DNA from: Candidatus Pacearchaeota archaeon
GTDB lineage: Archaea; Nanobdellota; Nanobdellia; Pacearchaeales; GW2011-AR1
NCBI GenBank assembly: GCA_023144035.1
Contig: JAGLGM010000003.1
Span: forward strand, 15,876 to 79,875
Direction of reading: 5' to 3'
DNA: 64,000 nt
Made by a program: the position numbers and the translations under genes. The number at the start of each line of letters is the position of its first letter. Positions within the stretch are counted from its first letter, which is position 1. The notes beneath the pieces are model-generated. The model ran no database searches, was not told where the DNA came from, and saw nothing but the letters and a program-made list of their open reading frames with translations. Below, in pieces: positions 4,331 through 62,073 of this stretch.

Positions 4331-4882
4331 TTAATAATAATTTACCTCAATTTCATCTTCTCCATATCCTGTAATAATGCAATCAGATATTTTTTTATCA
4401 GATTCTTTAATATAAATTTCTATAATGGCTTTAGTTAATTCATAATCTTCTAATCCATTTTCATTTACTTCAACATCTTCTACTTTTTCCCCTTCTTCAT
4501 CTTTTACTGTAAATTCCATTTCATTCCATTCTTCAACTAAATTGTTAAAATCTTCTGACGCAGTATCATTAAAACCTAATGAAGCCACCCCACACATTAT
4601 CTCAGTCATTAATTCAGTCGCATCTCCAAAAAAATCATTATAAATTATTTCTTCTTCAAAATAAAGTCTCATATCCAGTGAAACTTCTTTTGTTAATGAA
4701 TTTTTAGTAAGGATCACTGTACTATTTTCATCCGAGTATTCTATAATTTCTATGTTAGATTTATTTGATTGTTTATTAAACAAGAAAAAAGATAAAACTA
4801 TAATCAAAATAATAACTGCAACTCCTCCTATGATTAAACTTTTATTTTTTATATTTAATTTAGATGTCATTAATTGCCCCAA
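4331..4882 (-). CDS. Membrane-anchored hypothetical protein (N-terminal TM, acidic C-terminal domain)
   Basis: ORF track; hydrophobic segment IIGGVAVIILIIVLSFFLF. Confidence 0.45.
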   Translation of the reverse strand: MGQLMTSKLNIKNKSLIIGGVAVIILIIVLSFFLFNKQSNKSNIEIIEYSDENSTVILTKNSLTKEVSLDMRLYFEEEIIYNDFFGDATELMTEIMCGVASLGFNDTASEDFNNLVEEWNEMEFTVKDEEGEKVEDVEVNENGLEDYELTKAIIEIYIKESDKKISDCIITGYGEDEIEVNYY

Positions 4883-13637: not shown

Positions 13638-13726
13638 GGATGCGTAAGTTAATGTTAGACTATGTGGCTCCAGAATTTTTAACATGGAGTTACCACAAAG
13701 CGAGGGTTAGATTCCCTCCGTGTCCA
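13638..13726 (+). tRNA. tRNA-Trp (anticodon CCA at 13670-13672) with 18-nt intron (13674-13691) after position 37
   Basis: Acceptor ggatgcg/cgtgtcc (two G-U), discriminator A, D-stem agtt/gact, anticodon stem tgtgg/ccaca, loop ctCCAg, T-arm gaggg-ttagatt-ccctc. Intron atggag pairs with anticodon-loop ctcca (BHB-like). Confidence 0.6.
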
Positions 13727-16236: not shown

Positions 16237-16430
16237 AAATCACAAATAAAACAAAAATAAACAAATTGCTTGAAAAAAATCCTGAAGCAGCTGAAATTTT
16301 ATTTGAAGCTGGTATGGGTTGTGTGGGTTGTTCTATGGCTATGCATGAAACAATTGAACAAGGTTGTTTAGCACATGGAATGACAAAAAAACAAATTGAA
16401 AAATTAATTAAGGAGTTAAATAAGAAATGA
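16233..16430 (+). CDS. DUF1858-type redox disulfide small protein
   Basis: GMGCVGCSMAMHETIEQGCLAHG. Confidence 0.5.
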   Translation: MKITNKTKINKLLEKNPEAAEILFEAGMGCVGCSMAMHETIEQGCLAHGMTKKQIEKLIKELNKK

Positions 16431-18004
16431 TGAAATATTCTAAAAAAGTTATGTGTGAATTTCTCAAACCTAAAAACATGGGAGAAATAAAAAATCCAGA
16501 TGGAGTTGGAAAAATTGGAAATCCTACTTGTTTACTTCCAGATGAAAAAATTTGGTTAAATGAAAGTTTTGAAGCAATTAAAAAAACAAATAAAGGAGAT
16601 ATGGTTTTATCACATGATTCTACTGAAAATAAGATTTTAGGAAAATTTTCTAGAGAATATAAAGGAGAAATAATCAGACTAAAAAATGCGCTTGGGAATA
16701 TTTTTCTTACTCCAGAACATCTTGTTTTTGCAATGCGTATTCCAAAAGGAGATAAATTTAAAAGAAATAAAGGTAAAAAACAATTGATTCCTTCATGGTA
16801 TCATGCTGAATATTTGAAAAAAGGGGACATAATATTATATCCTTTTTCAAGAAAAGAAAAAAATATTAAATATTTGACAATAGATATCCCAAAACCCAAA
16901 TATGATTTTAGGAGCAAAAATATTCCAAGTAAAATCTCTCTTAACATGGATCTTTTGAGGCTTTTTGGTTACTTTCTCTCGGAAGGAAATATTCAAGATA
17001 AACCATCTAAAACATATATTTCTTTTGCGTTGCATATTAAGGAGAAAGAAATTGTCGAAGACATAAGAAAGATTGTTAAAAGATTATTTGATTTAGAAAT
17101 AAAATCCAAAGAAAGAATAAAGGAAAATGGGGTCGTTGTTTATATTTACCATGCTCAATTAGCAAGATGGTTTAAAAAATTATTTGGAAATGGTACTCAA
17201 AATAAATATTTACCTGAATTTATAATGCAATTACCCATATCAAAACAAAAAGCATTGATAAAAGGTTTGTGGAAAGGAGATGGATGCATCAATGTGAATC
17301 GTATTGGACCAAGAGCAGGCTATGTTACAATTTCATATAGATTATCTCAACAAATAAAAATCCTTTTACTAAGGCAAAAAATAATCTCTTCATTTTATAT
17401 TGAAAAAGAAAAAAAATCCAAATGGGCTAATCATAAAGAAGCTTATAGAATTCATGTGGGACAAAGAGATTCTCTAAAAAAATTATGTAAAATTTTAAAT
17501 TTAAAACATTGCTCAAAATCTTATGAGTCTATTAGTTCTTGGATTAACAATAATTTTTTATATACCCCTATAACTAAAATAGAAAGAAAAAATTATAAAG
17601 GAAAAGTATATAATTTAGAAGTTGAAAAGACCCATTCATTTATTTCAGAAAGTTTTTGTCTTCATAATTGTGGCGATGTTATGTGGGTTTATATTAAAGT
17701 TAAAAATGATAAAATTACAAAAATCAAATTTAAAACATTTGGATGTGCTGCTGCAATTGCAACATCTTCTATGGTTACTCAACTTGCTAAAGGAAAAACA
17801 ACTAAAGATGCTAAAAAAATTAAAATAAAAGATGTGGCATCTTCTTTAAAAGGATTACCTCCTCTAAAAATGCATTGTAGTGAACTTGCAACAGATGCTT
17901 TAAAATTAGCAATTAAAGATTATGAAAAAAAGAAAACTAATAAAAAGAAAAATGAAAATAGAACAAAAAGTAAAACAAACTTTGAAAAAGATAAAGTTAA
18001 ATAA
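16427..18004 (+). CDS. iscU: Fe-S cluster scaffold IscU/NifU-N, interrupted by an intein; Lys-rich C-terminal tail overlaps the next gene
   Basis: N-extein YSKKVMCEFLKPKNMGEIKNPDGVGKIGNPT; C-extein CGDVMWVYIKVKNDKITKIKFKTFGCAAAIATSSM…LPPLKMHCSELATDALKLAIKDY. Confidence 0.8.
   Translation: MMKYSKKVMCEFLKPKNMGEIKNPDGVGKIGNPTCLLPDEKIWLNESFEAIKKTNKGDMVLSHDSTENKILGKFSREYKGEIIRLKNALGNIFLTPEHLVFAMRIPKGDKFKRNKGKKQLIPSWYHAEYLKKGDIILYPFSRKEKNIKYLTIDIPKPKYDFRSKNIPSKISLNMDLLRLFGYFLSEGNIQDKPSKTYISFALHIKEKEIVEDIRKIVKRLFDLEIKSKERIKENGVVVYIYHAQLARWFKKLFGNGTQNKYLPEFIMQLPISKQKALIKGLWKGDGCINVNRIGPRAGYVTISYRLSQQIKILLLRQKIISSFYIEKEKKSKWANHKEAYRIHVGQRDSLKKLCKILNLKHCSKSYESISSWINNNFLYTPITKIERKNYKGKVYNLEVEKTHSFISESFCLHNCGDVMWVYIKVKNDKITKIKFKTFGCAAAIATSSMVTQLAKGKTTKDAKKIKIKDVASSLKGLPPLKMHCSELATDALKLAIKDYEKKKTNKKKNENRTKSKTNFEKDKVK
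16529..17668 (+). other. Intein (380 aa) with LAGLIDADG homing-endonuclease domain, inserted in IscU between GNPT and CGD
   Basis: Starts CLLPDEKIWLN (block A), LTPEHLVFA (block B TxxH), LFGYFLSEGNI and LIKGLWKGDGC (LAGLIDADG blocks). Ends …VYNLEVEKTHSFISESFCLHN followed by extein Cys. Confidence 0.75.
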
Positions 18005-20186: not shown

Positions 20187-20326
20187 TTTTACCTCCTAAT
20201 TATCTCAAAGATAGTTTAATTTAAAAAATTATCTTGTTGGGCAAGAGAGTGGTTACTAACCTTTAAATACTATTTGGCTTTAATAATATTCCACTATACA
20301 AGTTATAGTAATAAAAAGAATGTGAT

Positions 20327-20342
20327 ATACAATATATTGTAT
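20327..20342. promoter_or_regulatory. NrdR-box-like perfect 16-bp palindrome atacaatatattgtat upstream of nrdR-nrdJ, nested in an outer inverted repeat ctatacaag/cttgtatag (20294-20358)
   Basis: Perfect palindrome about 50 nt upstream of nrdR ATG; resembles the bacterial NrdR box consensus acaC-AtATaT-Gtgt. Confidence 0.5.
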
Positions 20343-20391
20343 GTTATATCTTGTATAGAAATAAAAGAGGAAACTGTATACTAAATAAAAA

Positions 20392-20829
20392 ATGGATTGT
20401 CCATATTGTTCACACATAAATTCAAAAGTAACAGATAAAAGAAAATCTCCACAAGGGGTAAGAAGAAGGAGAGAATGTCTCAAATGTAAAAAGAGGTTTA
20501 CTACATATGAGAAAACAGAAAAAGGAGACCTCTATGTAATAAAAAAACAAGGACAAAGAGAAAAATTTAATAGAGATAAATTAGAATCTGGAATTGAAAG
20601 AGCATTTGAAAAAAGACCTGTTTCAAGAGATAAAGTTCAAAAGATGATTAATGAAATAGAAGAACAAATAAGAAAAAGAGGTAAAAAAGAAATAAAGAGT
20701 TCAATTATAGGTGATTTAGTATCTAAAAAGATAAAAAGACTAGATAAGGTTGCTTATATTAGGTTTGCTTCAGTCTATAGAGACTTTGAAGATATTAAAG
20801 ATTTTAAAAAGGAGTTAAAAGAATTATAA
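20392..20829 (+). CDS. nrdR: Transcriptional repressor NrdR (zinc ribbon plus ATP-cone)
   Basis: MDCPYCSHINSKVTDKRKSPQGVRRRRECLKCKKRFTTYE. Confidence 0.85.
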   Translation: MDCPYCSHINSKVTDKRKSPQGVRRRRECLKCKKRFTTYEKTEKGDLYVIKKQGQREKFNRDKLESGIERAFEKRPVSRDKVQKMINEIEEQIRKRGKKEIKSSIIGDLVSKKIKRLDKVAYIRFASVYRDFEDIKDFKKELKEL

Positions 20830-20831
20830 AA

Positions 20832-23800
20832 ATGATTGAAAAAATAAGTGGTTTAGAAAATAAAACATTTACTCCTGAATATTCTGTTATAAAATTCACA
20901 GACAATCCTTTAAAATATTCTCCAAGAGAATTAAAATCATATGATGAAGATAGGCATATAAAAATTGATGATGCTTATAGTCTTGTTGATTCTCAAAAAA
21001 TAGATAGTTTAAGTTCTGAAAAATTAAGAGAAGCTGTAAATTCCGGAGACATAAGAATTTATGATTTTAAAGAAGAAAAATGTTTAGATAGATTAGATTT
21101 AGGAAAAGTTTACAATAATCCAATTAAAGAAAAACAAGGACTTGAAATTAATAGATATTTTACTCAAGAAGGTGAAAACCCTTTTGATTCAGTTGAATTT
21201 AAAAAAAGAGATTTTCAAATAGTAGATAAAGATACAAAAAAAATTATTTTCGAGATGAAAAATACAGAGTTTCCAGAATGGATAGATGAAACTTCAGCCA
21301 CCATTGTTGCAAATAAATATTTTTTTAATCCAGATAAAAAAGAATGGAAACAAAAAATAAAAAATAAGCTTGGAAGAGATCATGAATATTCTCTTAAACA
21401 TCTTAATAGTAGAGTTACTGATTTTATTACAGGAGAAGGTTGGAAATTAGGTTATTTTAAATCAGAAAAAGATAGAGAAATATTTAGAGACGAACTTAAC
21501 TTCATACAAATTAATGGAATAGGTTCTTTTAATTCCCCAGTACAATTTAATGCAGGATTATTTAATTCATATGGTATTCAAGGAAGTTCTGGAATAAATT
21601 ATTGGAATGATCCTGAAACAGGAGAGGTGAAAAAAGTTGTTAATGGAGAATATATACACCCTCAATTACATGCTTGTTTTATTAAAGGACCAAATGATGA
21701 TTTAGAAAGTATTTTACAACATGGAATTGATGAAGGAGCTATTTTTGCTTCTGGTTCTGGAATAGGTCAAGACATTGGAGTTTTAAGAGAAGGAGGAGGA
21801 ACTCTTTCAGGAGGAGGAAAAGCTTCTGGTCCAAAAAGTTTTACTATTTGGTATGATAAAGGAGCAGGAACAATTAAATCAGGAGGTAAAACAAGAAGAG
21901 CTGCTAGAATGACAATTATGAGGCAAGATCATCCAGATATTCAAGAATTTGTTGGAATGAAAATTGCTGAAGATAAAAAAGCTTTAACCTTAATACAAAA
22001 TGGATATGAGAATGGAATGGATGGTGAAGCTTATACAACTGTTTCCCTTCAAAATACTAATTTTTCAGTTAGATTAGATGATTATTTCTTTAAAACTCTT
22101 GATCAAGGAGGAAAAATTGAATTAAGAGGAATAAAAGATAAAAAAGTAAAGGGGAAAGTTTCTGCTGATTCTCTTTTAAAAGAAATTTCTTTTGGAAGTT
22201 GGAGAATTGGAGATCCAGCAGTTCAATATGATAGTCAAATTCAAAAAATGCATACTTCTAAAAATTCAGGGAAAATAAAATCAAGTAATCCTTGTGGAGA
22301 ATTTATGAATATTGATAATACTTCTTGTAATCTTTATGCTAATAGGTTAACAGCATTTATAGATGAAAATGGAAATTTTGATGTTGAAAAATATAAATAT
22401 TCTGTAAGAATTGCTGCAATTGCTCAAGATATTGCTAATAAAGCAGCTTCTTATCCTGTTAAAGATATAGCGTCTATAAGTCCAGAATTTAGTTCAATTG
22501 GTCAAGGATTTGCTGATTTAGGTTCTTTATTAATGAGAAAAGGATTAGCTTATGATTCTGACGAAGCAAGATCATTAACTGCAGCTATTTCTGCTTTAAT
22601 GACTGGTACTGTTTATGAGACTTCAATTGAAATGGCTGAAAAATTAGGAACTTTTGAACATTATGAATTTAATCAACAACCTATGCTAAATGTAATGAAA
22701 AAACATAAAAAAAATCTTAAAGATGTTGATTGGGAAAAAATGGAAGATCCTAATTTGAAAAGAGCAGCTTATAAATCTTGGAACAATATCCTTAAAGAAG
22801 GAAAAGAACATGGTTTTAGAAATTCTCAAACAACTGTTTTAGCTCCAACTGGAACAACCTCTTTTTTAATGGGCTGTAGCACCACAGGTATTGAACCTGC
22901 ATTTTCTTTGAGTACTACAAAAAATCTTGCTGGAGGAGGCCATGTAACAATTACAAATAAAGATGTTAAATTTTCATTAAATAATTTAGGATATTCTGAA
23001 GAAAACATAAAAGATATTTCAAAATTTGTTGAAAAATATAATACTTTAATTGATGCACCTCATTTAAATCCAGAACATTATCCTATATTTGACACTGCTA
23101 TAGGGAATAATGGAAAAGGAAGTATTAGTTTAGAAGGACATATGAAAATGATGGGAGCTGCACAACCTTTTATTTCTGGAGCTATTTCAAAAACAAATAA
23201 CCTTCCAAAAGAATCAACTGTTAAAGATATTTATGATGGCTATCTTTTAGGAGATGAACTTGATTTAAAAGGAGTTACAATCTTTAGGAGTAGTAGTAAA
23301 CCTGTTGCTGCATATGGAGATTCTGAAGTAGGTGTTAAATTAAAAAGAGGAGAAAAAGAAGAATTACCTTTTAGTGGAGATAGTTTTAGACAAGAAATTA
23401 AAATAAATCAAGCTCCTTTTTTAATAAACATTGGAGAATATGAAGATGGAAGACCAGGAGAAATTGTTATTAATTCATATACTTCTGATTCAACATTAGG
23501 AGCTGTTTTAAGAACAGCAGGAATTTCTGCATCTAGTGCCCTTAAGAGAGGGTCTGATCTAGAAGATGTTTTTAAAGGATGGATAGGCCATGGTTTTGAA
23601 CCTCGTGGTCTTGTAAAAATTGAAAATTCAAAAGGAGTAATAAAACCCCACCCTTATATAAAAGAAGCTTCTTCTCCATTAGATTTTGCAGGAAGATTAG
23701 CCCTTTTACATTATAAAGGTGAAAAAGATTTTGCAACAGAACCAGATCAAGTTAATTTAGGTGATTTAAGAGGTGCAAAGAATGGGGCATTTAAAACATA

Positions 23801-24029
23801 TCAAAGAATGGAAGTAGATGAATGGAATATTGATGATGTTTTAAAAGATGCTGAAACAGGAGGTTTTGTTAATGAGAGTGAGTTTTCAAATGGAAATAAA
23901 AAGAAAAAAAATGGGAATAATAAAGGACTTCTTTGCACTACCGGTTGTGGAGGATTAATGGTTCAAACAGGACCTAATTGCTTCCAATGTAATAGTTGTG
24001 GAGAAAAACGTGGAGGATGTGGAGGATAG
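20832..24029 (+). CDS. nrdJ: Ribonucleotide reductase, class II (B12-dependent, NrdJ-type) with C-terminal Cys-rich tail
   Basis: NPCGEF active site; C-terminal CTTGCGGLMVQTGPNCFQCNSCGEKRGGCGG; 3 nt downstream of nrdR (operon). Confidence 0.8.
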   Translation: MIEKISGLENKTFTPEYSVIKFTDNPLKYSPRELKSYDEDRHIKIDDAYSLVDSQKIDSLSSEKLREAVNSGDIRIYDFKEEKCLDRLDLGKVYNNPIKEKQGLEINRYFTQEGENPFDSVEFKKRDFQIVDKDTKKIIFEMKNTEFPEWIDETSATIVANKYFFNPDKKEWKQKIKNKLGRDHEYSLKHLNSRVTDFITGEGWKLGYFKSEKDREIFRDELNFIQINGIGSFNSPVQFNAGLFNSYGIQGSSGINYWNDPETGEVKKVVNGEYIHPQLHACFIKGPNDDLESILQHGIDEGAIFASGSGIGQDIGVLREGGGTLSGGGKASGPKSFTIWYDKGAGTIKSGGKTRRAARMTIMRQDHPDIQEFVGMKIAEDKKALTLIQNGYENGMDGEAYTTVSLQNTNFSVRLDDYFFKTLDQGGKIELRGIKDKKVKGKVSADSLLKEISFGSWRIGDPAVQYDSQIQKMHTSKNSGKIKSSNPCGEFMNIDNTSCNLYANRLTAFIDENGNFDVEKYKYSVRIAAIAQDIANKAASYPVKDIASISPEFSSIGQGFADLGSLLMRKGLAYDSDEARSLTAAISALMTGTVYETSIEMAEKLGTFEHYEFNQQPMLNVMKKHKKNLKDVDWEKMEDPNLKRAAYKSWNNILKEGKEHGFRNSQTTVLAPTGTTSFLMGCSTTGIEPAFSLSTTKNLAGGGHVTITNKDVKFSLNNLGYSEENIKDISKFVEKYNTLIDAPHLNPEHYPIFDTAIGNNGKGSISLEGHMKMMGAAQPFISGAISKTNNLPKESTVKDIYDGYLLGDELDLKGVTIFRSSSKPVAAYGDSEVGVKLKRGEKEELPFSGDSFRQEIKINQAPFLINIGEYEDGRPGEIVINSYTSDSTLGAVLRTAGISASSALKRGSDLEDVFKGWIGHGFEPRGLVKIENSKGVIKPHPYIKEASSPLDFAGRLALLHYKGEKDFATEPDQVNLGDLRGAKNGAFKTYQRMEVDEWNIDDVLKDAETGGFVNESEFSNGNKKKKNGNNKGLLCTTGCGGLMVQTGPNCFQCNSCGEKRGGCGG

Positions 24030-24107: not shown

Positions 24108-24614
24108 ATGAAAAAAAGAAAGATTCCTAATTGGGATGATTATTTTATGTCAATGGTTTATCTTGTTGCATCAAAAAGTAAAGATGAAAGAACTCATATT
24201 GGAGCAATTATTGTAGGTGAAAATAAAGAAGTTGTTTCTTTAGGTTACAATAGTTTTCCTAGAGGGCTTAATGATAATATTTCTAAAAGGCAAGAAAAAC
24301 CAGAAAAAGATTATTGGTTTGAACATGCTGAAAGAAATGCTATTTACAATGCAACTTTAATTGGAACTTCTTTAAATGGATGTAAAATGTATACAAATGG
24401 TATTCCTTGCATGGATTGTGCAAGAGGTATTGTTCAATCGGGAATTCTTGAAGTTATTGTAGATAAAAAATGGAATGAAAGTAATACAGGAGATGATTTA
24501 GAACATTCAAAAAGAACAATTCAAATGTTTAAAGAAACAGGTGTTAAATTAAGATATTGGAAAGGAAAACTTTTGAAGATTGAAAAGTTTCGAGGAAAAA
24601 AGGCCTTGAAATAA
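24108..24614 (+). CDS. dCMP deaminase (ComEB-type)
   Basis: HAERNAI and PCMDCARGI zinc-binding motifs. Confidence 0.8.
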   Translation: MKKRKIPNWDDYFMSMVYLVASKSKDERTHIGAIIVGENKEVVSLGYNSFPRGLNDNISKRQEKPEKDYWFEHAERNAIYNATLIGTSLNGCKMYTNGIPCMDCARGIVQSGILEVIVDKKWNESNTGDDLEHSKRTIQMFKETGVKLRYWKGKLLKIEKFRGKKALK

Positions 24615-24686
24615 AACATCTATCACAATTAAACTTAAAAAGAAACTTATCTCAGAGATAAGATAAAAAAGGAGATTAATAAAAAA

Positions 24687-25262
24687 ATGCCAATTTCAGC
24701 TTTAAAATTATTAGAATTAAATGAAAAATATAATTTAATTGAAAATCTTTCTGAAAGAGAATTATTAAATCCAGAAGGTGTTGGAACAGATCTTAGAGTT
24801 GGTGAAGTTTACAAAATAATAGAGCCAGGATTCTTAGGAATTGACGAAAGACACACTCCAGCAATTAAAAAAGTAGCAGATATAAATGAAGGAGATAAAA
24901 AAGTAGTTTTAAATCCTGGAGCATATGTTTTAGTTAAAACAATGGAAAGACTTAATGTTCCAGCTGAAAAAATCTCTCTTGAAACATGGAAAGCGTCTAG
25001 ATATCTTATGCCTGTTGTTTATCCTAGGAGCACTTTACAAAGATGTGGAATTGCTTTATTTAGAACAAAAACAGACCCAGGATATTCAGGAGAATTAACT
25101 TTTGGTTTAACAAATTTAGGAAACCAGAAATTCACATTTGAATTAGGTGCTAGAATGTTTAATGTTGTGTTTGAACCTGTAATAGGTGATATAAACAGAG
25201 CTTATAGTGGACAACACAATCAAGGCAGAGTTAGTGGCGGAGTAACTGAATTTCAGAATTGA
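24687..25262 (+). CDS. dCTP deaminase / dUTPase-family protein
   Basis: DPGYSGELTFGLTNLGNQKFTFELGARMFNVVF resembles the dCTP deaminase C-terminal motif. Confidence 0.55.
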   Translation: MPISALKLLELNEKYNLIENLSERELLNPEGVGTDLRVGEVYKIIEPGFLGIDERHTPAIKKVADINEGDKKVVLNPGAYVLVKTMERLNVPAEKISLETWKASRYLMPVVYPRSTLQRCGIALFRTKTDPGYSGELTFGLTNLGNQKFTFELGARMFNVVFEPVIGDINRAYSGQHNQGRVSGGVTEFQN

Positions 25263-25335
25263 TTTTTTTATAAAATTTAAATAATTCTTAAAATATATTT
25301 TAGATTGCTATTATATTTATAAAAGAAACTTAGTT

Positions 25336-27033
25336 ATGAATAAGATGACAATAAAACACGGTGATCAAACCTATATGACTGATAATGATCTTACAATAAA
25401 GATTATGGGTCTTTGGCCAAGTTTTAATATATCTAATCCTGAGTTAAAAAAAGAATTTGAAAAGAAATTTGGAAGAGGATTTTTAGGAGGAGATGATTTG
25501 GTTTCTTATGCACAACCTCTTGTTTCGAGTGGAATGGATTTTGAAAAATTAGAAGAAACAATCTTTGGAGACATGTATAATGAAGAAGGAAAAAATTTTG
25601 AAGATATTTTATTTAATAAAACTGCAACAGGAATTGGAAGAGGACATTCTTTAGGAGGGTTATCTGGAGTTGTTCTAGGAGTTCATGGAACAAAAATGAT
25701 TGATTCTGGATTAACAGGATTATGTTCTTCAAGATCTTTAGTTACAAGTAGCAGAAGAAGGGAAACTGGAACAGCAGATATTGCAATCCCAGAAAGCTTA
25801 CAAAAACATCCAAAATTACTCAAAAAATATATGCAAATTTCTGAGGAAGTTTTCAACTTAGGAAAAGAATTTAAAGAAAAATTTGGAAAAATGGGAGGAG
25901 TTGAAACTTTCAATAAAGTTATTCCTTATAATAATCCTGCTGATTTATTTATTGTTTTACCCTTAGATACAATGGCTACCATTACTGCAGAAGTTAGAGA
26001 AGATGCTTTGAATCCAAATGGAACTTTTCTTCCTAGAGAAATACATGCATTATCTGCAATGTTTCCAGAAATAACAAAAGAAATTGGTCAAAGTACTATG
26101 TATAAACAAAGAATTGAAGTTCCAAGAGATAATTATATGCATTATAATGTTTTCAAAGACCCTGGTTTTCCGAACCATGCACTTGAACTTGGAACGGAAT
26201 TAGGTTTGGAAAATATTGATCCTCTTGTTGTAAATACTTTTTTTGACAACACTAAAGGATTTCGTGTTGCTGCAAATTATGCTTTAGAAGCAATTAAACA
26301 AGCACAAAAAAGTGATAATCCAAAAGAACTTCATGAAAAATCATTAGAAGCAATGTATGCTTTGAGAAAATTTGCTAATGAATACAATGAATCAGTAAGA
26401 ATTCAAATAGGAGACACTTTGTCTTGGAGAGTCTGGTCTGAACAAAAAAGACATTCAACCTTAAGACAAACTGTTGAATCTGTTTATTCTGGAGCTGAAA
26501 GAGCTTTAAAAGGAATTACTCCTCTTTGGCCAACTATTGAAGTAGCATATAATGAAAACGATTTTGAAAAATTAAATGGGGTATTGAGTGAATTAGAAAA
26601 AAATATTATTATTGATAATAGGCTAAAAAGAAAACCTGAAGTTATAATTCCTTATGCTTATCACACTGCAAAACAATTAATGCTTTATCAAGAATTTTTA
26701 GATGCAGGTATTCCTGCAAGGGATGCTTTATTTGCTGTTCCAAAAAATATTAGATTAAGAACTTCTGAGAATTATGATTTAACTAATTTAATTGATTTAG
26801 AATTTCCTTTAAGACTTTGTAATACTTGTGAACCTGAAAGAAAAGCTAGTTCTTGGAAAAAAAGAGAAATTATCGTTGAAGAACTTCCTGATTTAGAGCC
26901 TTTCTTAAAATCAAAATGTAATGTTGGTTTTTGTACTGAAGGAAAATATTGTAATCAAATTACAGATATGAGAGAGTATGATGAAGGATTACATAAGGCA
27001 ACTAAACAATATATGTTAGATAAAGCTAAATAA
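25336..27033 (+). CDS. Hypothetical 565-aa protein inside the dNTP-metabolism block; C-terminal Cys cluster
   Basis: ORF track; CNTCEPERK…CNVGFCTEGKYCNQ. Confidence 0.45.
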   Translation: MNKMTIKHGDQTYMTDNDLTIKIMGLWPSFNISNPELKKEFEKKFGRGFLGGDDLVSYAQPLVSSGMDFEKLEETIFGDMYNEEGKNFEDILFNKTATGIGRGHSLGGLSGVVLGVHGTKMIDSGLTGLCSSRSLVTSSRRRETGTADIAIPESLQKHPKLLKKYMQISEEVFNLGKEFKEKFGKMGGVETFNKVIPYNNPADLFIVLPLDTMATITAEVREDALNPNGTFLPREIHALSAMFPEITKEIGQSTMYKQRIEVPRDNYMHYNVFKDPGFPNHALELGTELGLENIDPLVVNTFFDNTKGFRVAANYALEAIKQAQKSDNPKELHEKSLEAMYALRKFANEYNESVRIQIGDTLSWRVWSEQKRHSTLRQTVESVYSGAERALKGITPLWPTIEVAYNENDFEKLNGVLSELEKNIIIDNRLKRKPEVIIPYAYHTAKQLMLYQEFLDAGIPARDALFAVPKNIRLRTSENYDLTNLIDLEFPLRLCNTCEPERKASSWKKREIIVEELPDLEPFLKSKCNVGFCTEGKYCNQITDMREYDEGLHKATKQYMLDKAK

Positions 27034-29171: not shown

Positions 29172-29264
29172 GGCTCCGTAGCTCAGCCTGGCAGAGCACT
29201 GGACTTTTAGTTGGTAAAACAAGAAGTTATCCAGGTGTCGAGGGTTCAAATCCCCCCGGGGCCA
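29172..29264 (+). tRNA. tRNA-Lys (anticodon TTT at 29206-29208) with 19-nt intron (about 29210/11 to 29228/29)
   Basis: Acceptor ggctccg/cggggcc, discriminator A, D-arm gctc-agcctggca-gagc, anticodon stem ctgga/tccag, loop cTTTTag, T-arm gaggg-ttcaaat-ccccc (one A-C mismatch). Intron aagaagt pairs with actttt. Confidence 0.7.
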
Positions 29265-33062: not shown

Positions 33063-36000
33063 ATGGCAAAAGCAGTTAGAAAAAAAATAGGAGAAATTAA
33101 ATTTTCTTTAATTAGTCCTGACCAAATCAAAAAAATATCTTCTGCTAAAATTGTAACTCCTGAACTTTATGATATTGACGGTTATCCTGTTGATGGTGGT
33201 TTAATGGATTTAAGATTAGGTGCTATTGATCCTGGTGTAAGATGTAGAACTTGTGGGGGAAGATTAAAAGAATGTTTAGGACACCCAGGAAGTATTGATT
33301 TAGCTAGACCAGTTATTCACTTAAAATATATTCCTTTAATTGAAATGTGTTTAAGATGTTTTTGTCATGATTGTGGTAAATTAATGTTAGAAGATAAAAA
33401 TTTAGAAAAATTAGCTCCAAGTCAAAGAGCTAAAAAAGCAAAAGATTCTAAAAAATGTCCTCATTGTCAAGCAACTCAAACTAAAACTAAGTTAGATAAA
33501 CCTACAAATTTCTTTAAAGGAAAAACAAGAATATTTCCAACAGAAGTTAGAGAACTTTTAGTGAATATTTCTAATGACGAATTAAAAAAAATTGGAGTTG
33601 ATCCAGATAATTGTAGGCCTGAATGGGCTGTTTTAACTGCATTATTAGTTCCACCTGTAACAGTAAGACCAAGTATTATTTTAGAATCAGGTGAAAGAAG
33701 TGAAGATGATTTAACACATAAACTTTCAGATATTATTAGGGCTAATCAAAGACTATGGGAAAATTTAAATGCAGGTGCTCCTGAAGTTATTATTGAGGAT
33801 TTATGGGATTTGTTACAATTTCATATAACAACTTTCTTTGATAATACAACAACAAGAATTCCTCCTGCAAGACATAGAAGCGGTCAACCTTTAAAGACAA
33901 TTACAGAAAGAATAAAAGGTAAAGAAGGAAGAATTAGAAAAAATATTGCAGGTAAAAGAGTGAATTATTCTGGTAGAACTGTTATTTCTCCTGACCCTTA
34001 TATTAATATAAATGAAGTAGGAATTCCACATGAAATTGCAAGAATTGTTACTGTTTCTGAAATAGTTAATGATCTTAATCTTGAGAAATTAAAGGATTTA
34101 GTAAGGCAAGGAGAAACATATCCTGGTGCAAATTATGTTATACGTCCTGATGGAAAAAGAAAAAAAATAACAGAAGAATTAAGAGAAGAAATTATTAGTG
34201 AACTTTCTCCAGGTTATCAAGTTGAAAGGCATTTACAAAATGGAGATATTGTATTATTTAATAGACATCCAAGTCTTCACAGGGGAAGTCTTATGGCTCA
34301 CTATGTAAAAGTATTGCCTGGAAGAACATTTAGATTACATCCTGCTGCTGCTACTCCTTATAATGCTGATTTTGATGGTGATGAAATGAACATACACTCT
34401 CCACAAACAGAAGAAGCAAGAGCAGAAGCAAAAATACTTTTAGATGTTAAAAGAAATCTTATGTCTCCTAAAAATAATACAAATTTAGTTGGGTGTATTG
34501 GAGATGCTATTACTGGAAATTATTTATTAGGTTTTAATGAACTTTCTAAAGAAGATACAAATCAACTTTTATACAAATCAGGATTAGATTATTCTGTTTC
34601 AAAAAAAATGGTTTCTGGACTTGAAATCTTCTCGAAAATATTACCTAAAGTTAATTTTTCAAATGATTCTATAACAATTAAAGATGGAGAAATTACTAAA
34701 GGAGTTATAGATAAAACTACTTTTGGTGATGAAGATGGAGACTTAGTTAAAGAACTTGATAAAACTGTAGGTAGAACTGAAACTTTTGAAACTATTAAAC
34801 GAGCTTTTAATTTAGGTAAAAATTATCTTACTGATCATGGAATTACAACTTCTGTTGAAGATTTAGATTTAGATGAAAAAGTAATTGAAGCTGGTGAAGA
34901 AATAATTAAAAAAGCTGAGAAAAAAACAAATGAATTAATTTTATCTTATAATGAAGGAACTTTAGAAAGTATTCCTGGAAAAACAAAGGAAGAATCAAGA
35001 GAAATAAAAATCTTACAATCTTTAAATGAAGTAAGAACAAAAATTGGAGAAATTGTTAAACGAGAATTCCCTGCTTCAAATCCAGTTAACCATATGATTA
35101 AATCTGGAGGAGGAGGAAATATTCTTAATATTACTCAAATGGCTTCATGTGTTGGTCAACAAGCTTTAGGAAATCGTAGAGTTGATTTTGGTTATACAGG
35201 AAGAACACTTTCATTTTTCCAAAAAGGAGATTTATCTCCAAAATCAAGAGGTTTTATTAGAAATTCTTTTATTAAAGGTTTAAGGCCAGATGAATTCTTT
35301 TTCCAAGCAATTACAGGAAGAGATTCGCTTATGGATACTGGTTTGAGAACACCTAAATCAGGTTATTTATATAGAAGATTAGCAAATGCTTTACAAGATT
35401 TGAGAAAAGAATATGATGGAACAATTAGAGATAGTAATAATAATATTATTCAATTTAAATATGGAGATGATGGATTAGATGTTACCAAACTCCATATTAA
35501 AGGAGAATTAGATTCTGGAGAAGCAATAGGAATTGTTACTGCACAATCATTTGGAGAAGCTTCAACACAAATGGTTTTAAGAACATTCCATATGGCAGGT
35601 GTAGCAGAGATGCAAGTTACCCAAGGTTTACCAAGAATTATAGAAATTTTTGATGCAAGAAAAAAACCTTCTTCACCTAAAATGGAAGTTTATCTAAATA
35701 AAGAATTTAACAATGAAAAAAATGCAAAAATCTTTGCTGAAAAAATTAAAGAAGTTAAATTACAAGAAATTTCTTCTGAAATTATATTGGATTTTGGAAA
35801 TAAAAAAATTGAAATAAAAATTGATGATAAAGGATTAAAACAAACTCATGCTTCTATAAATAAAATTGTTGAAAGATTAAATGAAGCTGGATTTAAAGTT
35901 AAAGAAAAATCAAATTCAATAATTTTAAACGTTGCTGAATTTGAATTTAGAGAAATATATAAACTTAAAGAAAAATTAAAAGAAACTATAATTTCAGGCA

Positions 36001-36551
36001 TTAAAGATATTAAACAAGTTTTAATTGTAAAAAAAGATAGAGATTTTGTTGTAACTACTTTAGGAACAAATCTAAAAGAAATGATAAATATGAAAGAAGT
36101 TAATAAAGATAAATTAATTTCAAATGATTTTTATGAAATGGCTGATGTGTTTGGAATTGAATCTGCTCGTCAATTAATAATTAATGAAATTTCAGAAGTT
36201 CTTAAAAGTCAAGGATTAGATATTGATATAAGACATCTTAAATTAGTTGCAGATGCTATGACTAATTCTGGTGGAGTTAAAGGAGTTACAAGAATGGGTA
36301 TTATTGCTCTAAAATCTTCAATATTAGCAAGAGCTACTTTCGAAACTCCTGTTAAGCAATTTGTGAATGCTACTCTAAAAGGAAGCGGAGATAAATTAGC
36401 AAGTGTTATTGAAAATATTTTACTTAATCAACCAGTGCCAATTGGAACTGGTCTACCTGGACTTCTTGTTAAAGTTGTTGGACCTTTAATAAAAAAAGAG
36501 GAAGATAAGAAAAAAGCTAAAACAAAGGTTGTTGAAGAGGTCAACAAATAA
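33063..36551 (+). CDS. rpoA: RNA polymerase subunit A, apparently unsplit (A' and A'' regions in one 1162-aa ORF)
   Basis: Zinc motifs at N-terminus, NADFDGDEMN catalytic loop, then trigger-loop/A''-type region (AQSFGEASTQMVLRTFHMAGVA) in the same frame. Confidence 0.9.
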   Translation: MAKAVRKKIGEIKFSLISPDQIKKISSAKIVTPELYDIDGYPVDGGLMDLRLGAIDPGVRCRTCGGRLKECLGHPGSIDLARPVIHLKYIPLIEMCLRCFCHDCGKLMLEDKNLEKLAPSQRAKKAKDSKKCPHCQATQTKTKLDKPTNFFKGKTRIFPTEVRELLVNISNDELKKIGVDPDNCRPEWAVLTALLVPPVTVRPSIILESGERSEDDLTHKLSDIIRANQRLWENLNAGAPEVIIEDLWDLLQFHITTFFDNTTTRIPPARHRSGQPLKTITERIKGKEGRIRKNIAGKRVNYSGRTVISPDPYININEVGIPHEIARIVTVSEIVNDLNLEKLKDLVRQGETYPGANYVIRPDGKRKKITEELREEIISELSPGYQVERHLQNGDIVLFNRHPSLHRGSLMAHYVKVLPGRTFRLHPAAATPYNADFDGDEMNIHSPQTEEARAEAKILLDVKRNLMSPKNNTNLVGCIGDAITGNYLLGFNELSKEDTNQLLYKSGLDYSVSKKMVSGLEIFSKILPKVNFSNDSITIKDGEITKGVIDKTTFGDEDGDLVKELDKTVGRTETFETIKRAFNLGKNYLTDHGITTSVEDLDLDEKVIEAGEEIIKKAEKKTNELILSYNEGTLESIPGKTKEESREIKILQSLNEVRTKIGEIVKREFPASNPVNHMIKSGGGGNILNITQMASCVGQQALGNRRVDFGYTGRTLSFFQKGDLSPKSRGFIRNSFIKGLRPDEFFFQAITGRDSLMDTGLRTPKSGYLYRRLANALQDLRKEYDGTIRDSNNNIIQFKYGDDGLDVTKLHIKGELDSGEAIGIVTAQSFGEASTQMVLRTFHMAGVAEMQVTQGLPRIIEIFDARKKPSSPKMEVYLNKEFNNEKNAKIFAEKIKEVKLQEISSEIILDFGNKKIEIKIDDKGLKQTHASINKIVERLNEAGFKVKEKSNSIILNVAEFEFREIYKLKEKLKETIISGIKDIKQVLIVKKDRDFVVTTLGTNLKEMINMKEVNKDKLISNDFYEMADVFGIESARQLIINEISEVLKSQGLDIDIRHLKLVADAMTNSGGVKGVTRMGIIALKSSILARATFETPVKQFVNATLKGSGDKLASVIENILLNQPVPIGTGLPGLLVKVVGPLIKKEEDKKKAKTKVVEEVNK

Positions 36552-52661: not shown

Positions 52662-52804
52662 TTCTTTTTTACAAACAAGTCACTACATGTAACTAACAAT
52701 TAGGTATTTAGTAGTAACTATTAAATTACAACAGATAGTAAGATTTATAAATCAGAATATATGAATATAAATACAGAAAAAAATTCTGTATTAATTAAAT
52801 AAAA

Positions 52805-54010
52805 ATGAACACAAAAATGAACACAAAGAACCTTATGGTTTCTTTCTGTACTATTGCAATTGTTTTATTCTTAGTAGCTTTTGTTAGTGCTGCTGAGATA
52901 GCCACAATTGATTCTGTAGAAGTTAATGGTGTTGATACAAACGGATATAATGTTGCTGTTATTGCTGGTAATACTTTAAATATTGAAGTATTATTCACTG
53001 CTCTGTCAGATAATTCTAATGTAAGAATTGAAGCAGAACTTACAGGAACTAAAGTTGATGTTAGTGAAAAAACTGCATTCTTTGATGTTGAAGCTGACAA
53101 GACCTATCCAAAATCTCTTGAGTTAACTCTTCCTTACGAACTTAAAGATGTTCAAAGTGGAGATTTTAATCTTAATGTAAGAATTTGGAATAGTGAAACT
53201 GAGTCAGAATATAGCACTATTTTAAGAATTCAAAGACCTTCATTCAATGCAGATGTTATGTCTATAGAAGTTAGTCAAACTGTTGTTGCTGGTGAAATGC
53301 TACCAGTTGATGTTGTATTAAAGAACATTGGTTACAATGATCTTGATGATACATATGTTACTGTAAGTATTCCTGCACTTGGTATTGAAAAAACTTCTTA
53401 TTTTGGAGATATTGTATCTTTAGAAGATAATGACAATGATGATTTTGCTAAAGGAAGATTTTATTTAAGAGTTCCATACGAAGCTCTTGAAGGAATCTAT
53501 ACTATTGAAGTAGAAGTATCAAATGATGACTTAAACGTAATTGAATCTGAAGAAATTATTGTTAAAAATGATTTCTCAGCTGGAAACTTAATTGTAAATA
53601 GTTTTAGAAAAATTGTAGCAACTGGTCAAGATGCTGAATATAGTTTCATGATTGTAAACCCAACTAATCAGTTAAAGGTTTATCAAATCGTTACTGAATC
53701 TAACAGTAATCTTTATACAAATGCTAACACTGCTGTTATTGCTGTTCCTGCTGGAACAAGTAAGACAGTTACTGTAACTGCAAATGCTGTTGAAGAAGGT
53801 GAACACACTTTTAATGTGAATGTGCTTTCTGGAAACAACCTTGAAGGAGTTATTACATTTAGCCTTAATGCTGAAGGTAAACAATCAAACTCTATCGCAG
53901 TTTTAACAGTTATTTTAGCAATAGTATTTTTAGTATTACTAGTTGTTTTAATTGTATTACTAGGAAAGAAACCCCAAAAAACTGAAGAATTCGGAGAAAG
54001 TTATTACTAA
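52805..54010 (+). CDS. Cell-surface protein: signal peptide, Ig-like beta-rich body, C-terminal TM anchor
   Basis: Signal LMVSFCTIAIVLFLVAFVSA; C-terminal IAVLTVILAIVFLVLLVVLIVLLGKK. Confidence 0.55.
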   Translation: MNTKMNTKNLMVSFCTIAIVLFLVAFVSAAEIATIDSVEVNGVDTNGYNVAVIAGNTLNIEVLFTALSDNSNVRIEAELTGTKVDVSEKTAFFDVEADKTYPKSLELTLPYELKDVQSGDFNLNVRIWNSETESEYSTILRIQRPSFNADVMSIEVSQTVVAGEMLPVDVVLKNIGYNDLDDTYVTVSIPALGIEKTSYFGDIVSLEDNDNDDFAKGRFYLRVPYEALEGIYTIEVEVSNDDLNVIESEEIIVKNDFSAGNLIVNSFRKIVATGQDAEYSFMIVNPTNQLKVYQIVTESNSNLYTNANTAVIAVPAGTSKTVTVTANAVEEGEHTFNVNVLSGNNLEGVITFSLNAEGKQSNSIAVLTVILAIVFLVLLVVLIVLLGKKPQKTEEFGESYY

Positions 54011-61921: not shown

Positions 61922-62073
61922 GCCCAGATCGCATAGTGGTTATTGCACCGGATTGCTAAGCACAGGACACCTCAACGGTTTCCTACCGCACTACCTTCCC
62001 TTAATGGATTGTAGAAGTTAACGCAAAGATCCGGACCCTTCGGGGTGCGTAGGTTCGACTCCTACTCTGGGCG
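61922..62073 (+). tRNA. tRNA-Ser (anticodon GCT at 61955-61957) with about 70-nt intron (61960-62029) and long variable arm
   Basis: Acceptor gcccaga/tctgggc, discriminator G, D-loop with GG, anticodon stem ccgga/tccgg, loop ttGCTaa, variable arm acccttcggggtgc, T-arm gtagg-ttcgact-cctac. Intron 3' end gcaa pairs with ttgc (BHB-like). Confidence 0.65.
61964..62004 (+). other. Second copy of the 41-nt element, inside the tRNA-Ser intron
   Basis: See 32997-33037. Confidence 0.5.

Follow-up and report, generated by a model that had tools for sequence, protein, structure and literature searches.

How a repressor that evolved against sigma-factor promoters could silence an archaeal promoter, read by a polymerase of the RNA polymerase II (Pol II)-like type, is the question raised by a 64-kb stretch of DNA (the window) from a Candidatus Pacearchaeota archaeon, a member of the DPANN lineages. 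The window carries nrdR, the gene for the transcriptional repressor NrdR, directly in front of nrdJ, a gene for a class II ribonucleotide reductase (RNR). Nearly all work on NrdR concerns bacteria, some of it with the protein as an antibacterial target, and the published surveys of its binding sites, the NrdR boxes, that were consulted here were run on bacterial genomes. The nrdR–nrdJ pair is most probably an autoregulated operon under a canonical two-box NrdR operator, at which NrdR would block the archaeal polymerase in response to deoxyadenosine triphosphate (dATP), a reading to which we assign a probability of roughly 0.8. Together with 22 relatives, the locus offers a clean, conserved archaeal example in which the position of the operator relative to the TATA box can be read from the DNA, and it makes the question testable.

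The NrdR Protein and Its Partner Gene

The features of the locus are as follows, in coordinates of the window.

20262–20269, plus strand: predicted TATA box, TTTAAATA, following an A-rich stretch that resembles a B recognition element (BRE); putative function
20291–20292, plus strand: predicted transcription start, obtained by applying the −29/−30 TATA spacing to position 20262
20296–20311, plus strand: NrdR box 1, ATACAAGTTATAGTAA, with five of the six conserved positions (C4, A6, T9, T11, and G13; T at position 8)
20312–20326, plus strand: linker of 15 bp between the boxes, giving a start-to-start spacing of 31 bp
20327–20342, plus strand: NrdR box 2, ATACAATATATTGTAT, with all six conserved positions; perfect palindrome
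20341–20356, minus strand: partial third box, ATACAAGATATAACAT, without G13, at the right arm of an outer inverted repeat
20367–20370, plus strand: GAGG resembling a Shine–Dalgarno sequence, 21 nt before the nrdR ATG, read from the sequence; putative role
20392–20829, plus strand: nrdR, 145 residues, zinc-ribbon and ATP-cone repressor
20832–24029, plus strand: nrdJ, 1065 residues, class II (B12-dependent) RNR, second gene of the operon

The nrdR product matches the TIGR00244 NrdR equivalog profile at 193.3 bits (cutoff 124.65), with residues 1–145 lying on profile positions 1–147. The zinc ribbon (PF22811, 60.8 bits against a cutoff of 27.2) contains two CxxC motifs formed by Cys3, Cys6, Cys29, and Cys32, and is directly followed by an ATP-cone (PF03477) at residues 48–134, which scores 79.9 bits and covers profile positions 2–87 of 88. 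These matches bear out the initial annotation, which had described the protein as a zinc ribbon plus an ATP-cone. An NCBI entry identical to the window protein is assigned as NrdR of a Candidatus Pacearchaeota archaeon, and the closest relative of solved structure is E. coli NrdR (9fvr), with ~50% identity over the full length (E 1e-44); S. coelicolor NrdR (7p37) aligns from end to end (E 3e-30).

In S. coelicolor NrdR, the residues linked to function comprise the DNA backbone contacts Arg12, Arg26–29, and Arg37, the base-recognizing Asp15 and Arg17, and two nucleotide sites formed by Val48, Lys50, Arg51, Glu56, Phe58, Lys62, Phe124, Val127, and Tyr128 (PMC9110341). Alignment to 7p37 places at the DNA-contact positions of the window protein Lys12 (also a lysine in E. 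coli), Asp15, Arg17, the four consecutive arginines Arg24–Arg27, and Arg35, and at the nucleotide sites Val49, Lys51, Lys52 (a conservative change), Glu57, Phe59, Lys63, Phe125, Val128, and Tyr129, so that all of the zinc, DNA-contact, and nucleotide residues of the S. coelicolor protein are kept or conservatively replaced. The open reading frame is thus confirmed, at the level of sequence comparison, as a genuine full-length NrdR of the bacterial type.

The nrdJ product was correctly recognized as a class II RNR in the initial annotation; it matches TIGR02504 (NrdJ_Z) at 441 bits (cutoff 400), together with the Ribonuc_red_2_N and barrel domains, and no ATP-cone was matched in it by Pfam. Only 2 nt separate the stop codon of nrdR from the ATG of nrdJ, not 3 nt as first stated, and so short a gap implies co-transcription. 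The start coordinate of the feature first delimited as 20294–20829 belongs to the operator, the gene itself beginning at 20392.

A Two-Box Operator Upstream of nrdR

An NrdR site consists of two partly palindromic 16-bp boxes separated by a linker of 15–16 bp, or alternatively by one that is one helical turn longer, with C4, A6, A8, T9, T11, and G13 as the conserved box positions (PMC13584703). C4 and G13 are critical for NrdR binding (PMC9110341), and the central AT of the box is dispensable (PMC13584703). Box 2 of the window is its own reverse complement, as the initial annotation had stated, and lies, as it also stated, about 50 nt upstream of the gene, its end being 49 nt before the nrdR ATG at 20392. 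The site had been taken for a single NrdR-box-like operator; the likeness to the box stands, and box 1, which had been missed, emerged in a repeat search as a direct repeat of box 2 located 31 bp upstream, so that the site is the canonical pair.

The palindrome had further been described as nested in an outer inverted repeat. This repeat is real, with arms of 14 nt at 20294–20307 and 20345–20358 that are 93% complementary, and it is made of box halves: the left arm is the 5′ half of box 1, and the right arm lies within the partial third copy, an arrangement that is rare among the relatives. The third copy, of doubtful function, has the appearance of a direct repeat in which the end of box 1 and the linker were partly duplicated. 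Half-sites resembling a third box (TTGTAT, TTGTAC, or TTGTGT) occur in 3 of the 22 relatives (L015, L017, and L018).

Candidate sites throughout the 64-kb window were scored with a clade-specific matrix built from the 22 other loci, with the window's own boxes excluded. The window pair scores 36.1 bits (box 1, 12.9 bits; box 2, 23.3 bits, the best single box in the window), and the next candidate site reaches 10.1 bits, the maximum of 20 shuffles being 10.8 bits. What lies above chance is the match to the NrdR box, the partner 31 bp upstream, the position, and the conservation. The same scan gave no NrdR box pair upstream of the dCMP deaminase, dCTP deaminase, and ThyX-like genes. A lone sequence resembling box 1, TTACAACAGATAGTAA, at 52726–52741 in the intergenic region before the gene at 52805–54010, scores 15.5 bits; it was rejected as a further NrdR site, since it has no partner box and falls within the range of the shuffles (mean of maxima 13, largest 18.4).

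Conservation of the Operator in Related Promoters

A scan of one genome per species yielded 23 related loci, of which 22 include the promoter, so that 23 promoters could be compared with the window's own counted in. In all 22 relatives the elements follow the same order: TTTAAATA, a variable T-rich spacer of about 26 nt, box 1, 15–16 nt of linker, and box 2, with the ATG located 12–15 nt after box 2 in most of them. The start-to-start spacing of the boxes is 31 or 32 bp in 23/23 promoters, and the distance from the start of the TATA box to box 1 is 32–36 nt in 21 of them. The conservation is concentrated within the boxes: in box 2, C4, A6, T11, and G13 are invariant, with A8 in 20/23 and T9 in 21/23, and in box 1, C4 and A6 are present in 23/23, G13 in 22/23, and T11 in 18/23. 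Variation is found in the TATA-to-box 1 spacer, at the centres of the boxes, and in the linker. A perfect palindrome is found for box 2 in six promoters and for box 1 in none; as palindromy is rarely kept and the contact positions are, what these promoters conserve is the positions contacted by the protein, not the potential for a hairpin.

Across 185 kb of related loci, pairs with both boxes above 13 bits occur solely upstream of nrdR, one in each of L001–L022; the lower-scoring pairs comprise two weak ones inside coding regions (L002 and L008) and the diverged pair that precedes nrdR in L026. Two distant archaeal loci, L024 and L026, whose NrdR proteins show 57% and 59% identity, respectively, also carry TTTAAATA and two boxes, and in L024 the gene order is nrdR–nrdD–nrdG among the genes for eIF-1A, NMD3, and eIF-2 beta. 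The initial annotation had named the absence of the palindrome from orthologous promoters as evidence that would speak against an operator; the box is present in 22 of the 22 readable related promoters. Its central proposal, that an archaeon has an NrdR of the bacterial type together with a matching operator, is upheld by the protein score, the two-box site, and this conservation.

The 23 related loci are labelled as Pacearchaeota, Woesearchaeota, or Nanoarchaeota, save for two: L006 (MFUP01000011.1), labelled Candidatus Nomurabacteria, and L023 (JAKAGC010000208.1), labelled Acidobacteria. The NrdR proteins of both are 78–81% identical to the archaeal clade, and L006 has the same promoter of TATA and two boxes and an NrdJ that is 75–76% identical to those of the Nanoarchaeota-labelled L005 and L021. 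The two labels most likely represent binning errors and not evidence of transfer.

Two further features of these promoters were observed. About 13 of the 23 loci (L001, L002, L004, L008, L009, L011, L013, L015, L017–L020, and L022) have GAGG or GGAG within the linker, ~35 nt before the ATG, which is too distant for a normal ribosome-binding site, whereas the GAGG of the window follows box 2; the linkers of bacterial NrdR boxes are reported as not conserved. A role as the Shine–Dalgarno sequence of an upstream start codon or small open reading frame was rejected, as inspection revealed no suitably spaced start codon. Upstream of the TATA box by ~13–29 nt (window 20233–20261; L001–L022), most related promoters contain a motif of approximately TGTTACT-TTTT-nn-AATAGTTA-n-AAAT, which does not match the NrdR box pattern and may represent the BRE together with a site for another factor.

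Promoter Geometry and a Proposed Mechanism of Repression

An exact or near-exact copy of the TATA 8-mer (TTTAAATA or TTTATATA) is present in 23/23 promoters. For many genes in the window, TTTAAATA, TTTAAAAA, or TTTATAAA starts 29–30 nt before the ATG, which is the geometry of the leaderless transcripts of archaea, and leadered genes in the window have GGAG or GAGG 5–17 nt before the ATG. A scan for sigma-70 promoters and intrinsic terminators gave none above chance, as expected for an archaeon. Combining the TATA box at 20262 with a spacing of 29–30 nt predicts a transcription start at ~20291; box 1 would then span positions of about +5 to +20, and box 2 those of about +36 to +51. On this prediction, the leader of the nrdR operon would be unusually long for this genome, and the operator would reside inside it.

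If it behaves as its S. coelicolor and E. coli counterparts do, NrdR carrying ATP only would form oligomers that do not bind DNA, and a build-up of dATP would convert it into a tetramer loaded with dATP and ATP. The two zinc-ribbon pairs of this tetramer would bind box 1 and box 2, three helical turns apart, and the DNA would be sharply bent. With NrdR bound at about +5 to +51, the TATA-binding protein (TBP) and transcription factor B (TFB) could still bind, and the recruitment or escape of RNA polymerase would be blocked, silencing both nrdR and the RNR gene. Several unrelated archaeal repressors (MDR1, LrpA, and Phr) bind at or just downstream of the transcription start and block RNA polymerase recruitment. 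NrdJ lacks an ATP-cone, and feedback by dATP would accordingly be exerted on transcription, by way of NrdR. In bacteria, NrdR boxes overlap the transcription start (PMC9110341), the arrangement that is predicted here.

Several observations weigh against this model of repression. A weak TATA-like sequence, AAATAAAA, lies downstream of the boxes at 20359–20366; a leaderless nrdR transcript might start from it and so evade a block at +5 to +51. At 20803–20810, within the 3′ end of nrdR, TTTAAAAA begins exactly 29 nt before the nrdJ ATG; these nucleotides are also the codons for Asp-Phe-Lys-Lys, and the element is not kept where those residues differ. In L005, L007, and L021, an intergenic TTTAAAAA is found at −29 to −31 before the RNR gene with no boxes near it, and RNR expression may thus be partly independent of NrdR. 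The boxes of L024 and L026 begin only 12–16 nt after the start of the TATA box, which implies that archaea differ in where the operator lies with respect to the basal promoter. The transcription start itself is an extrapolation from motif spacing alone, and the binding of DPANN NrdR to the boxes is a prediction.

Apparent Replacement of the RNR Gene behind nrdR

Relatives whose NrdR is 74–87% identical to that of the window and whose flanking genes are the same carry behind nrdR either an RNR with 21–57% identity to the window NrdJ or a class III NrdD. At least five class II lineages, 21–41% identical to one another, are found at the nrdR locus, and in L010 and L022 a class III NrdD with an ATP-cone occupies the position. 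The syntenic neighbours are a PP-loop ATPase gene and a DUF5652 gene upstream and, in several relatives, the dCMP deaminase and dCTP deaminase genes downstream. L002 and the window share the sequence TAAAATG where the nrdR stop meets the RNR start, and the downstream genes of the two loci are 81–85% identical, with the RNR at 21%. Because nrdR, operator, and flanks are kept while the RNR differs, the regulator and its operator appear to be the stable part of the locus, and the enzyme gene to have been replaced in place. In L002, an insertion of ~50 nt with a small inverted repeat (TCGGAAATC…GATTTCCGA) at 4413–4467 interrupts the 3′ end of nrdR, and the original last codons of the gene (KKELKEL and stop) remain as a remnant just before the RNR start.

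These data allow a wider proposal, to which we give slightly less than an even chance: in DPANN archaea of the Pacearchaeota type, the locus would act as a fixed regulatory dock, with a vertically inherited nrdR and its two-box operator at one site, RNR lineages and classes repeatedly swapped behind them (in L002 precisely at the start codon), and a bacterial-type dATP/ATP sensor repressing a TATA/BRE promoter from about +5 to +51. If this is true, NrdR works on both the bacterial and the archaeal transcription machinery and provides the only dATP feedback for RNRs without an ATP-cone. The locus itself shows that a regulator and its operator can be more lasting than the gene under their control, which bears on the exchange of RNRs in organisms with very small genomes.

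Alternative Explanations for the Site and Its Origin

The palindrome and the outer inverted repeat might instead form an RNA hairpin in the 5′ leader, acting in translational control or attenuation and not as a DNA operator. The leader at 20290–20394 does fold as a nested hairpin of −18.7 kcal/mol (z = −3.4 relative to shuffles), and a start near 20291 would place both boxes in the transcript. Set against this, the outer inverted repeat is missing in most relatives, where 12 nt separate box 2 from the ATG; box 1 is palindromic in 0/23 promoters and yet keeps C4, A6, and G13 in 22–23 of them; the changes at positions 7 to 10 of box 2, which is perfect in only 6/23, are not compensatory; the 31–32 bp spacing of two similar boxes suits a protein tetramer, not a hairpin; and no Rfam family matches the site. 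A hairpin function is accordingly improbable. Much the least likely of the alternatives, to the point of being nearly negligible, is that box 2 is a chance palindrome in AT-rich DNA or ordinary promoter sequence that happens to resemble an NrdR box. The simplest counts agree with it: the window contains two perfect 16-bp palindromes, where first-order Markov shuffles average 4.3, so that palindromes are not unusual here, and the literature regular expression for box pairs (PMC13584703) finds 33 matches against 27.5 in shuffles. Neither count was retained, palindromy being not significant alone and the loose expression being uninformative at 27% GC. The chance explanation is contradicted by the 36 bits of the pair with a matrix that excludes the window boxes, as opposed to 10.8 bits at most in shuffles, and by the location of the pair directly before the gene for a protein that binds such boxes, and it is refuted by conservation, the pair being present in all 22 related promoters and being the sole pair with both boxes above 13 bits at each locus.

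The alternatives also include a recent origin, in which a single mobile module brought nrdR and nrdJ in together from a bacterium, an extension of the horizontal acquisition that the initial annotation had suggested. NrdR is present in 77% of bacterial as against 22% of archaeal genomes (PMC13584703), nrdR–nrdJ operons exist in bacteria, both in S. coelicolor (PMC9110341) and at a locus of bacterial context (L028), and RNR genes are often horizontally transferred (PMC3019208). The record of the locus does not fit such a module, since the relatives combine the same flanks and NrdR with unrelated RNRs, the flanks remaining syntenic while the RNR changes lineage or class, and the GC content varies little along the window. 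NrdR proteins with 74–100% identity form more than 120 clusters (at 90% identity), the organism-named ones all from Pacearchaeota or Nanoarchaeota. In a neighbour-joining tree the Pacearchaeota NrdR clade has 100% bootstrap support and any sister group 12% or less, and identity to the labelled NrdR and NrdR-like proteins of gammaproteobacteria, Firmicutes, haloarchaea, and a phage collection is a uniform 41–54%. Recent acquisition of the pair is therefore very improbable, slightly more so than the hairpin. With sister-group support of 12% or less, the tree indicates neither a donor of NrdR nor a direction of transfer, and nrdR alone may have entered the DPANN lineages by an ancient transfer.

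Genomic Setting of the Locus

The window contains the archaeal markers Rpb2- and Rpb1-type RNA polymerase subunits, ribosomal proteins S12 and S7, aEF-2, and aEF-1alpha, in the order usual for archaea, and its GC content stays at 25–29% (27% overall), with no compositional anomaly. At 33063–36551, one open reading frame of 1162 residues holds Rpb1 domains 1 to 5, and the largest RNA polymerase subunit is thus apparently unsplit; in most archaea this subunit is encoded separately as A′ and A″. The tRNA genes at 13638–13726, 29172–29264, and 61922–62073 measure 89, 93, and 152 nt, too long for uninterrupted tRNAs, and all three match the full 71-position tRNA model; ARAGORN found only one of them, with the anticodon not assigned. 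The three genes very probably carry introns. An iron–sulfur scaffold gene of the IscU/NifU type at 16427–18004 is split by an intein with a LAGLIDADG homing endonuclease domain. Downstream of nrdJ, at 24108–27033, a cluster for deoxynucleotide (dNTP) metabolism encodes a dCMP deaminase, a dCTP deaminase/dUTPase-like protein, and a protein of 565 residues with only a sub-threshold match to ThyX (Thy1); a separate TATA-like element precedes the dCMP deaminase gene at −29.

Comparison with Known NrdR Systems and Archaeal Repressors

NrdR has been described as rare in archaea (PMC9110341, PMC12176259) and, in a recent preprint, as absent from them (bioRxiv 10.1101/2025.03.28.645925), while other reports record it in the 22% of archaeal genomes cited above (PMC13584703) and list haloarchaeal nrdR–nrdAB operons (PMC3019208). 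The protein is indeed commoner in bacteria, as the initial annotation had held; in view of this archaeal record, the emphasis that it placed on finding NrdR here was overstated. Among the papers searched, none was found that links NrdR with DPANN lineages.

The closest parallel is the nrdRJ operon of S. coelicolor (PDB 7P37/7P3F/7P3Q; PMC9110341), in which nrdR is likewise followed by a class II RNR gene and is autoregulated, as proposed for the window, through two 16-bp boxes with a 15-bp linker around the transcription start. The two NrdR proteins share their domain architecture, with the DNA- and nucleotide-contact residues kept or conservatively replaced; the window protein differs in its length of 145 residues, without the long C-terminal tail, and in the modest alignment score (E 3e-30). 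The Pacearchaeota promoter, in contrast, is of the TATA/BRE type and served by a Pol II-like polymerase instead of sigma-70, and its boxes are located downstream of TATA, with no overlap of −35 and −10 elements. E. coli NrdR (PDB 9FVR and others; PMC12176259) follows the same box definition and requires two boxes (PMC13584703). However, E. coli nrdR does not lie beside an RNR gene and controls three separate RNR operons, whereas the window has one operon, which includes nrdR, and the operator is the only site found in 64 kb.

The haloarchaeal nrdR–nrdAB and nrdBA operons of plasmids and minichromosomes (PMC3019208) share with the window an archaeal host and an nrdR directly upstream of the RNR genes. 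In Halogeometricum pHBOR02 (L029, 2900–3000), two boxes with six of six conserved positions, spaced 30 bp apart, begin ~20 nt after a GCTTTAT element, and in Natronomonas PL131 (L030, 2900–3000) at least one clear NrdR box stands ~20 nt after a GCTTTAT element; the placement of the boxes after TATA may be general in archaea. The haloarchaeal operons encode class I RNRs and have been judged recent bacterial transfers, often plasmid-borne (PMC3019208), in contrast to the DPANN nrdR, which is chromosomal, syntenic across many genomes, and associated with class II or class III RNRs. The haloarchaeal and Pacearchaeota NrdR proteins do not cluster together in the tree.

The archaeal repressors MDR1, LrpA, and Phr also have operators between or after TATA and over the transcription start, and the repression step proposed for NrdR is the same. 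They differ in kind, being of the DtxR, Lrp, and winged-helix types, whereas NrdR combines a zinc ribbon with an ATP-cone, responds to dATP and ATP, and as a tetramer would wrap ~50 bp of DNA. The finding extends the known NrdR system and leaves the known NrdR mechanism unchanged; its two additions are modest, one being where the operator sits with respect to an archaeal TATA box, the other the replacement of the RNR behind a fixed regulator.

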